Below are positions 2,642-5,713 of a DNA stretch of 64,000 nucleotides, one piece after another. The translations under genes were made by a program, and so were the position numbers. Source of the DNA: Candidatus Aenigmatarchaeota archaeon (GTDB lineage Archaea; Aenigmatarchaeota; Aenigmatarchaeia; QMZP01); contig JACQII010000006.1 of assembly GCA_016198585.1 (NCBI GenBank), positions 34,296 through 98,295 on the forward strand, written 5' to 3'. How positions within the stretch are numbered: position 1 is the first letter of the stretch; each line of letters begins with the position of its first letter. A model generated the notes under the pieces. It searched no databases. It saw only the letters and a list, made by a program, of their open reading frames with translations, and had not been told where the DNA came from.

Positions 2642-5600
2642 ATGGGTCTCGGGCGGAAGGGCACCATGGCCTGGGGCATGGTCCTCATCGCAGCCGCAGT
2701 CGTCGTGCTGGTCATGGTCACTACTGGGCCGCGCGAGGCCGCGGCCCAGGAAGGCCCATCGGCCAACTTCTCGTTCTGGGGGTACGTCAAGTACCCGAAC
2801 GGGACCTTCGTCGCCGGGGTGAACATCACCGTCGAGGCGATCAACTTCTCCGCGGCGGTGAACGGCCCGCCGCCGACCGCCCAGGTGATCAGCAACCTCT
2901 CGACCTCGACCGGCTTCTTCAACGTCTCCAACATCCTCGGCGGGCTCAACTACCAGGTCAAGATCAGGAAGTTCAACGGGACCAACGTGACCGTGAGCTG
3001 GATCGGGCCGACCCTGCCGCCGTTCCCGGACGTCTTCCTCAAGAACGACAGCTTCGGCATCGCCAACTCCACCTTCGTCCTCCAGCGCGCGGCGAACATG
3101 AACCTCAGCGTCATCAACGCCAGCGGCCAGCACCGCAACTTCACCTACCAGATCATCGACAAGAAGCTTGGCTTCCCGATCGAGACCCCGGAGTTCAACG
3201 AGAGCAAGTACGCGAACAGCAGCAAGGGCAAGATGGTCGCCGTGCCGTACAACCGCAACTACACGGTCGAGTTCTTCCCGTACCAGTCAGCGCCGCTCGA
3301 GGTCTCGGCTACCAACCTCTCTATCCAGAACACCAGCCCGGACTGCTTCAATGACGACAACTGTGACTACTTCCTGGGCATCCAGGTCAACACCAGCACC
3401 ACGCCGGTCTACGTCCACGGATTCATCAACACGACCGACTTCGGCCAGATGAACCGCTCGACGGCCAACTTCACCAACCTGAGCGTCGTCACCTACCTCG
3501 TCTTCGGCGGGGACAGCGTGATGAGCCAGGCCACCCTGCCCCCGAACATGGGCCAGTTCATCGTTCAGGTGATTGGCGGCGGCCCCAAGGACATCATCAA
3601 CGCGACCGGAACCAATGGTACCACCCCCGAAGGGGGCCCGTTCTACAACATCACCCTCCCCGGGACGACCACCGGCTTCGAAGTCCTGATGGTCTTCTAC
3701 GGCACGAGCCGCTCGGCCCAGAACATCAACGCCACCAACCTCTCCTATGTGGGCTTCCAGAACGTCACGGTCCGCGTCGGCCAGGGCAACATCGAGATCA
3801 ACCAGACCCTCCAGCGCCTCGCCGGAGCCGTGGGCGTGCAGACGTTCTCGGACACGACGATGCCGAGCATCGTGACCAACCTGACCACGATCAATCTCAC
3901 CAGTCCGGATTCCACCTCTGCAGTCGGCCAGGCCCATATGGAGGCCCGACTCACCTACACCATGATCAACACCAGCGCCTACACCCGGCAGTACCGCTGG
4001 TTCATCGAGACTGACCAGACCACCAGCACGGCCAAGATGCCGATCCCCAACACCACGACTGACCTCCGCTTCCAGATCTTCTCCCAGAACTTCGCGCCCA
4101 TCAAGAAGGACATCAGCAACGCCTTGCTCAATAGCAACGGCACGCTGAATATCAAACTCTACCAGATGGACATCAAGGACCCCGACCAAGGGGCCGGGAC
4201 TGGCGGCCTGAAGTCCAGCGTCCAGATGGTCTTCTACACGTCCTCATCGGCCTGTGATGTCCCTACGCCGCTAGCCAACTGCTCGCTGTCGAACTTCGGG
4301 TCGGCCCAGGAGTTCAACCCCATGAAGGCCATGCTCGGTGGGTCGGTGAGCCTGCGCATGACCCAGTCCACCGGCGTGACCGTCCACTACGTGAACGTCG
4401 ACCTCCTGGCGTCGGGCCCGCCCGACGCCTCGATGGACACGGACACCGACATCAACAAGACGTCCGGAACCGGCTTCGGCGAGATCTGGAAATTCGGCTC
4501 TTCCGGCCCGACAGTCTACGACTACGTCCTGATCGGCATCCCCTATACTGACGATCCTGGTGACCTGGAAGACGAAGCGACCGTGAACATCAGCATCCCC
4601 GTCTTCTATGATAACGACTGGGTCGTGATCTGGAACGCCTCGTCCAACGGGACCAACGCGTCGGCCCTCGCGGCCAACTTCACCGACTACTCCTCGAAGG
4701 CCACCGAATGGACGACCCTCATGAACAACAACACCTGCGCCACCACCCTCACCGTCCTCAATGCGACGCAGCCCTGCTTCATCAACACCAGCGAGAACAT
4801 GGTCTGGTTCCGCATCCCGCACTTCTCCGGCACCGGGCCGTCGATCACCGGCGCGACCGTGGAGACGCCGGCGACGCCGGCGCCGTCTTCCGGAAGCTCC
4901 AGCAGCTCTGGCGGTGGGGGCGGAGGCGGGTCCACCACGTCGACCGACCCCAAGGCCACCAAGATCTGGGGAATCATCAACCCGGCGACTGAGGCGACGT
5001 TCGAGATCACTAAGACCGAGATCGGGATCAGCGAGATCGCCTTCAGCGTGGCCAACCCCGCGCAGAACGTCCAGATCACGGTCCAGAAGCTTTCCGACAA
5101 GCCCGCAGCCCTCCCCGAGACCGGGACTTCGGTCTACCAGTACGTCGAGATCACCAAGACCAACCTCGAGGACAGCGCGCTCCTCGGCGCGGCCAAGATC
5201 CAGTTCAAGATCCCGAACAGCTGGCTCGCCGAGAACGGCATCGACAAGGCCGCCGTGGCGCTCCACCGCTACACCAGCCAATGGGACGCACTCCCGACTA
5301 CCCTGCTCTCCACTGACGTGAACTCCACGTCCTACCAGGCCACGACTCCCGGCTTCTCGACCTTTGCCATCGGCGGAACGCCTGCGGCTGCCCCGGTCGT
5401 TGAGTCGTGTGGTGACGGCACCTGCGACGCGGACGAGACGTTCGAAACCTGTCCGGCCGACTGCCCGGCCCCCGCGCCGGTGGCAACGTGCGTGGAAGGC
5501 GAGGTCTCCTGCCTCGGCGAGACCCCCCAGGACTGCACCGCCGGCCAGTGGGTGACACGCGAGCCCTGCACTGGCCTGGACTGCCCGGAGAACCCCTGCG

Positions 5601-5713
5601 CGGCCAGTCCTGAGACCGGCGCCGGGGAACAGATCAACCCGGTCTTCGTCGCCGTGATCGGCGTGATCATTGTCCTGGTCATCGCGGGCGTCTTCCTCTA
5701 CCGCCGCAAGTAA
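2642..5713 (+). CDS. large cell-surface glycoprotein, family A. Signal peptide, dozens of N-x-S/T sequons, Ser/Gly linker, PGF-pre-PGF-like domain, Cys-rich module, C-terminal NPVF-TM-RRK anchor
   Basis: 1023 aa. N-terminal hydrophobic signal (MAWGMVLIAAAVVVLVMV). Extreme density of NxT/NxS. SSSSGGGGGGGS linker. The ...VYQYVEI...TTPGFSTFAI block matches the PGF-pre-PGF domain pattern. CGDGTCDADETFETCPADC module. Ends ...NPVFVAVIGVIIVLVIAGVFLYRRK. TATA ATTTATTAGG about 27 nt upstream of the ATG. Confidence 0.8.
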   Translation: MGLGRKGTMAWGMVLIAAAVVVLVMVTTGPREAAAQEGPSANFSFWGYVKYPNGTFVAGVNITVEAINFSAAVNGPPPTAQVISNLSTSTGFFNVSNILGGLNYQVKIRKFNGTNVTVSWIGPTLPPFPDVFLKNDSFGIANSTFVLQRAANMNLSVINASGQHRNFTYQIIDKKLGFPIETPEFNESKYANSSKGKMVAVPYNRNYTVEFFPYQSAPLEVSATNLSIQNTSPDCFNDDNCDYFLGIQVNTSTTPVYVHGFINTTDFGQMNRSTANFTNLSVVTYLVFGGDSVMSQATLPPNMGQFIVQVIGGGPKDIINATGTNGTTPEGGPFYNITLPGTTTGFEVLMVFYGTSRSAQNINATNLSYVGFQNVTVRVGQGNIEINQTLQRLAGAVGVQTFSDTTMPSIVTNLTTINLTSPDSTSAVGQAHMEARLTYTMINTSAYTRQYRWFIETDQTTSTAKMPIPNTTTDLRFQIFSQNFAPIKKDISNALLNSNGTLNIKLYQMDIKDPDQGAGTGGLKSSVQMVFYTSSSACDVPTPLANCSLSNFGSAQEFNPMKAMLGGSVSLRMTQSTGVTVHYVNVDLLASGPPDASMDTDTDINKTSGTGFGEIWKFGSSGPTVYDYVLIGIPYTDDPGDLEDEATVNISIPVFYDNDWVVIWNASSNGTNASALAANFTDYSSKATEWTTLMNNNTCATTLTVLNATQPCFINTSENMVWFRIPHFSGTGPSITGATVETPATPAPSSGSSSSSGGGGGGGSTTSTDPKATKIWGIINPATEATFEITKTEIGISEIAFSVANPAQNVQITVQKLSDKPAALPETGTSVYQYVEITKTNLEDSALLGAAKIQFKIPNSWLAENGIDKAAVALHRYTSQWDALPTTLLSTDVNSTSYQATTPGFSTFAIGGTPAAAPVVESCGDGTCDADETFETCPADCPAPAPVATCVEGEVSCLGETPQDCTAGQWVTREPCTGLDCPENPCAASPETGAGEQINPVFVAVIGVIIVLVIAGVFLYRRK

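Follow-up and report, generated by a model that had tools for sequence, protein, structure and literature searches.

The substrates of archaeosortase A (ArtA), exemplified by the S-layer glycoprotein of Haloferax volcanii, are glycosylated surface proteins that end in the PGF-CTERM signal, in which a Pro-Gly-Phe motif stands before a hydrophobic helix with a basic end. Often a second domain, PGF-pre-PGF (TIGR04213, IPR026453), lies ahead of that signal; it is carried by thousands of archaeal surface proteins, and its own PGF motif has long been unexplained. In Sulfolobus, an organism without an archaeosortase, it is the C-terminal transmembrane (TM) helix of SlaB that keeps a surface-layer-type protein in the membrane (PMC6098224). 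GAIN is a domain of animal adhesion receptors that cleaves itself. A microbial version of the GAIN fold has recently been named MAIN (Brogan & Rudner, bioRxiv 10.64898/2026.05.12.724683).

Here we describe two proteins from an uncultured groundwater archaeon of the Candidatus Aenigmarchaeota (DPANN), known from a metagenome-assembled genome (MAG), both encoded within the 64-kb stretch of DNA that was analysed as a whole and that we call the window. The first, p1, has 1023 aa; the second, p2, has 834 aa and is identical to NCBI MBI4020999.1, an entry from a Candidatus Aenigmarchaeota MAG that already bears the name PGF-pre-PGF. We consider it probable that the end they share, about 275 aa long, serves these type-I surface glycoproteins as a modular stalk-and-anchor cassette close to the membrane, and that it closes with an ordinary TM helix.

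The shared C-terminal cassette

These C-terminal residues are the only part common to p1 and p2, with 49-51% identity. BLASTP returned a single significant HSP, between residues 769-991 of p1 and 581-803 of p2 (51% identity, E 5e-67), and since all remaining HSPs have E values of 0.8 or more, the N-terminal regions are unrelated, which bears out an earlier note on this DNA that had described two ORFs with different beginnings and a common C-terminal cassette. Every element that the note had listed is present, at the following positions, and their order in p2 (57299 to 58126) is that of p1.

2642..5713, + strand: p1, type-I surface glycoprotein with a signal peptide, 45 ectodomain N-x-S/T sequons and the C-terminal cassette
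4886..4945, + strand: Ser/Gly-rich flexible linker of p1, SSGSSSSSGGGGGGGSTTST, G7 included (from the sequence)
4946..5389, + strand: PGF-pre-PGF domain of p1 (VYQYVEI, TTPGFSTFAI), matched by TIGR04213; predicted GAIN-B/ZU5-like (MAIN-type) beta-sandwich
5348..5359, + strand: P903-G904-F905-S906 turn of p1, with a candidate scissile bond between F905 and S906 (DSSP on the model)
5408..5464, + strand: 4-Cys mini-module of p1, CGDGTCDADETFETCPADC (invariant Cys)
5489..5599, + strand: 6-Cys module of p1, C-x6-C-x7-C-x10-C-x4-C-x4-C, with three short beta-strands (invariant Cys; model)
5600..5641, + strand: juxtamembrane linker of p1, ending in GEQINP, predicted disordered and not conserved
5642..5701, + strand: C-terminal TM helix of p1, VFVAVIGVIIVLVIAGVFLY (model helix 232-254; hydropathy)
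5702..5710, + strand: RRK tail of p1, followed by the stop codon at 5711..5713
57296..59800, - strand: p2, type-I surface glycoprotein with 57 sequons, Big_13 Ig-like repeats and the same cassette
58061..58126, - strand: Ser/Thr/Gly linker of p2 (…SSGGGGGGGGTTSS; from the sequence)
57611..58060, - strand: PGF-pre-PGF / GAIN-like domain of p2, matched by TIGR04213
57644..57655, - strand: PGFS turn of p2 (F718, S719)
57407..57595, - strand: Cys-rich spacer of p2, made of the 4-Cys mini-module (57539..57595) and the 6-Cys module (57407..57514)
57299..57406, - strand: juxtamembrane linker (…APVNPFNT), TM helix (57308..57367) and RKK tail (57299..57307) of p2

The earlier note had let the shared end begin at position 4900, which falls inside the Ser/Gly linker of p1.

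Hydropathy places hydrophobic segments of p1 at its N- and C-termini only. Both proteins would be exported through their N-terminal signal peptides, heavily N-glycosylated on the ectodomain only, and most likely held in the membrane by the helix itself, with neither sortase-type cleavage nor lipid transfer. Read from the N to the C side, the cassette consists of the Ser/Gly linker, the PGF-pre-PGF domain, a spacer with ten Cys, a short linker predicted to be disordered, the TM helix and a basic, positive-inside tail of three residues; the PGF-pre-PGF domain would couple the large and variable ectodomain to the anchor, and the Cys modules may serve to space the two. Among the 150 best homologues, a TM segment follows the domain in 142-143, and a run of at least four Gly precedes the domain in 63 of 143. 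A parallel is SlaB, which like p1 and p2 is anchored by a C-terminal TM helix of its own, a likeness for which no sequence relationship is expected; SlaB, unlike them, has a coiled-coil stalk and no GAIN-like domain with Cys modules.

The Cys-rich part had been described as one Cys knot inserted before the anchor, but the alignment resolves it into two modules with ten invariant Cys (4 + 6). In the mini-module, the succession C, C, E, C, D, C is invariant in 16 homologues, while the six Cys of the other module are equally invariant and the whole module is duplicated in some homologues. Because the stretch between the domain and the TM segment is free of Cys in 59 of 143 homologues and contains two 6-Cys modules in others, the supposed inserted knot is an optional spacer, whose modules can be absent or exchanged for one another. 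Tandem repeats of the 4-Cys unit are present in an unrelated protein from a metagenome. Of two metagenome scans, the first returned nothing, and the second, with a degenerate DNA pattern of the unit, returned two unrelated proteins. No Pfam or NCBIfam family matches the mini-module; the AF2 model of the Cys modules (pLDDT 72.7) has no fold match in the PDB with E < 1, and profiles of the domain and of the Cys modules found nothing significant among PDB sequences, the top hit being a Sushi/CCP-like stretch at E 0.09.

The PGF-pre-PGF domain and a candidate cleavage site

Against TIGR04213, whose curated cut-off is 28 bits, p1 scores 96.5 bits (aa 781-911) and p2 91.6 bits (aa 603-724), so the earlier note's identification of the domain with VYQYVEI and TTPGFSTFAI as PGF-pre-PGF was correct. 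Both are secreted archaeal proteins with a signal peptide and carry the domain N-terminal to the anchor, and its last strand region, TTPGFSTFAI, is identical in the two. The named comparators are Methanohalobium evestigatum WP_013195681.1 and WP_013195738.1 and Haloferax volcanii pHV4 WP_004043178.1. As in proteins of this family, the domain of p1 and p2 is the last globular one before the C-terminal anchor, scores well above the cut-off and ends in (T/S)PGFSxFAI, often with a Ser/Gly linker upstream. WP_013195681.1 further resembles p1 and p2 in having a plain TM segment and a KKR end without PGF. Unlike p1 and p2, the Haloferax protein continues with an acidic/Thr linker and a tail that scores as a PGF-CTERM signal, and in WP_013195738.1 the helix is preceded by PGF, with a tail that stays below the TIGR04126 threshold. 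What sets p1 and p2 apart from these comparators is the insertion of two Cys-rich modules and a helix without PGF.

The predicted fold of the domain is a beta-sandwich of the MAIN type, resembling GAIN-B and ZU5. In the model of p1, DSSP assigns strands at residues 127-134 and 139-146, with PGFS (135-138) between them, so that F905-S906 in p1, and F718-S719 in p2, would lie in the turn that leads into the final strand, with a hydrophobic residue ahead of the predicted nucleophile. The PGFS turn is therefore predicted, on the model, to be equivalent in position to the GPS or H-F-S site at which GAIN-type domains cut themselves. At the level of sequence, the domain profile has no match among GAIN chains in the PDB, and hhalign against three streptococcal MAIN fragments, whose sequences end before the H-F-S site, gave a probability of 0.15.

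A stronger version of the MAIN/GAIN comparison holds that the domain cuts itself between Phe and Ser of P-G-F-S, after which the glycosylated ectodomain would keep only a non-covalent hold on the final beta-strand, and mechanical force could shed it. The predicted resemblance to GAIN-B, ZU5 and FIIND and the placement of PGFS in just the turn that precedes the terminal strand speak for it, as does conservation: across 163 copies of the domain, P is found in 131, G in 151, F in 142 and S in 162, the residue before the conserved Ser is Phe or Leu, and an F-A-I pattern follows it as in GAIN tethered peptides. Bacterial MAIN domains cut between Phe and Ser of H-F-S, in proteins that are laid out alike, with a signal peptide, an ectodomain, the MAIN domain and a surface anchor (bioRxiv 10.64898/2026.05.12.724683). 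The PSI-BLAST-derived MAIN list published in that work contains a TIGR04213 protein, WP_013195681.1, which scores 169 bits on the model. The main text of the same preprint never mentions PGF, and no text that we found in the literature explicitly equates the PGF motif of TIGR04213 with the GPS or H-F-S site of GAIN and MAIN.

Most GAIN, PIDD and Nup98 sites that cleave need a His. Unlike MAIN, GAIN-B, ZU5 and FIIND domains, p1 and p2 have no His at position -2 from the Ser, where 151 of the 163 copies have Gly, nor one conserved anywhere, since no column of the domain contains His in more than 18% of the copies. The conserved Ser could merely cap the turn, and no archaeal MAIN domain has been reported with an experimental test. 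The anchors differ as well, MAIN proteins using sortase/LPXTG or SLH anchors and p1 and p2 a TM helix. Given that the catalytic His is missing from the family, we regard self-cleavage as possible but doubtful, and F905-S906 in p1 and F718-S719 in p2 as tentative candidates for the bond. Cleavage there would leave C-terminal fragments of 118 aa (p1) and 116 aa (p2), each with the Cys-rich stalk and the TM helix.

TIGR04213 might, with the same reserve, represent an archaeal, His-less branch of the self-cleaving GAIN/MAIN family, with P-G-F-S as its cleavage site, and cleavage in such a family would require a catalytic mechanism that works without the canonical His, for which the conserved R876, T886 and Y834 of p1 are candidate substitutes. 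If it were true, the giant glycosylated ectodomains of DPANN archaea such as this one would be held only by one beta-strand on a small, Cys-rich, helix-anchored stub, and force could pull them off or shed them, for example during attachment to a host cell. Surface glycoproteins of archaea, among them the S-layer-type proteins of methanogens, of haloarchaea and of DPANN episymbionts, might then be force-releasable assemblies of two fragments.

The C-terminal tail

The earlier note had suggested that the end of the two proteins may be a sortase-type sorting signal, not a canonical PGF-CTERM but a variant with NPVF or NPFN in place of PGF. The first half of this stands: TIGR04126 (PGF-CTERM, cut-off 24.5 bits) matches neither the full proteins (E<=1) nor their isolated tails (E<=10), whereas a Haloferax control tail scores 32.2 bits. 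The second half is not supported, for the motif is not conserved. The model searches proposed in the note divide, with TIGR04213 matching both proteins and no sorting-signal model matching both tails. The p1 tail alone aligns with LPXTG_anchor (TIGR01167) at 18 bits, over profile positions 6-32 only, that is, the helix and basic residues; LPXTG itself is absent, and we rejected this match as a generic helix-plus-basic one, since a methanogen tail in which PGF is present gives the same match.

The residues before the helix are NPVF in p1 and NPFNT in p2, not Pro-Gly-Phe; NPVF is made up of the end of the juxtamembrane linker and the first TM residues. The closest relatives, P0006 for p1 and P0005 for p2, each from another assembly, have matching architectures and conserved neighbouring genes, and their tails, …GPAPNYALWWVV…PEKKK and …PPPPSNQLIIIV…HQKKK respectively, are without NP[VF]. 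Among the 142 TM-bearing tails of the 150 best homologues, PGF stands beside the TM segment in none and NP[VF] in one, which is p2 itself. The segment after the helix is 0 to 117 aa long (median 12 aa), 61 homologue tails have no sorting-signal family in common, and none of the columns of alignment A3 that lie after the last Cys and before the helix is conserved. In the model of p1, juxtamembrane residues 221-229 have pLDDT <50. One juxtamembrane motif, similar to [DN]Y(T/K)W, stands out with 23% over a background of 7%, an enrichment that hints at some constraint beside the helix.

Could NP[VF]x, the helix and RRK/RKK nevertheless form a lineage-specific variant of PGF-CTERM, at which an archaeosortase-like enzyme cuts off the helix and adds a lipid? 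The outline fits, with a short, polar, Pro-containing stretch, about 20 hydrophobic residues and three terminal basic residues, and p1 and p2 do share with PGF-CTERM proteins the 20-residue helix and the RRK/RKK at the extreme C-terminus. PGF-pre-PGF, moreover, precedes true PGF-CTERM signals in haloarchaea and methanogens. Against it, no CTERM model matches while the control does, the motif is absent from the closest relatives and occurs in a single homologue tail, NPVF and NPFN are out of register when p1 and p2 are aligned, and many homologues continue into long cytoplasmic extensions. No archaeosortase-like gene of the exosortase family is recognisable among the membrane ORFs of the window, as the earlier note had also remarked; the search covered those 64 kb, and an archaeosortase or other processing enzyme may sit elsewhere in the genome. 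The polytopic ORFs in the window are Yip1, SecD, SecF, GT2, an acyltransferase-like fragment and a 10-TM protein. The last of these, a HEAGH protein (59946..61076) upstream of p2, was considered as a processing enzyme and rejected, having no family match and not adjoining the p2 relative in L005.

A variant signal is thus highly improbable. With no PGF-CTERM match, an unconserved motif, tails of variable length and optional Cys modules, we read the end of p1 and p2 as a plain type-I anchor, and the two proteins differ from ArtA substrates in lacking PGF before the helix, an HMM match, a conserved substitute motif and an archaeosortase gene in the window. They add two cases to the PGF-pre-PGF family, with a plain helix as the anchor, and no new sorting system is needed to account for them. 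As a counterpoint, both tails are short and tripartite-looking, a shape compatible with a sorting signal.

Age of the two copies

Over aligned codons, p1 and p2 have a nucleotide identity of just 63.6%, and where the codons encode the same residue the third positions match in 61.6%, in a genome with GC3 of about 90%. On this low identity we rejected recent gene conversion; it indicates that the two cassettes are old paralogues and not the product of an assembly error. The idea that the shared end reflects an assembly chimera, a recent duplication or gene conversion and is no functional module, which could draw on the presence of both copies on one MAG contig and on the 79% nucleotide identity of the best 30-codon window, in the Cys mini-module region, is effectively refuted by these figures, by the same architecture and neighbouring genes of the closest relatives in independent assemblies, and by the 6870 homologue clusters that an exhaustive search of representatives recovered. 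Word-indexed homology searches gave 3, 2 and 0 matches, and a scan of species-representative genomes returned two Woesearchaeota loci and one Methanomicrobiaceae locus.

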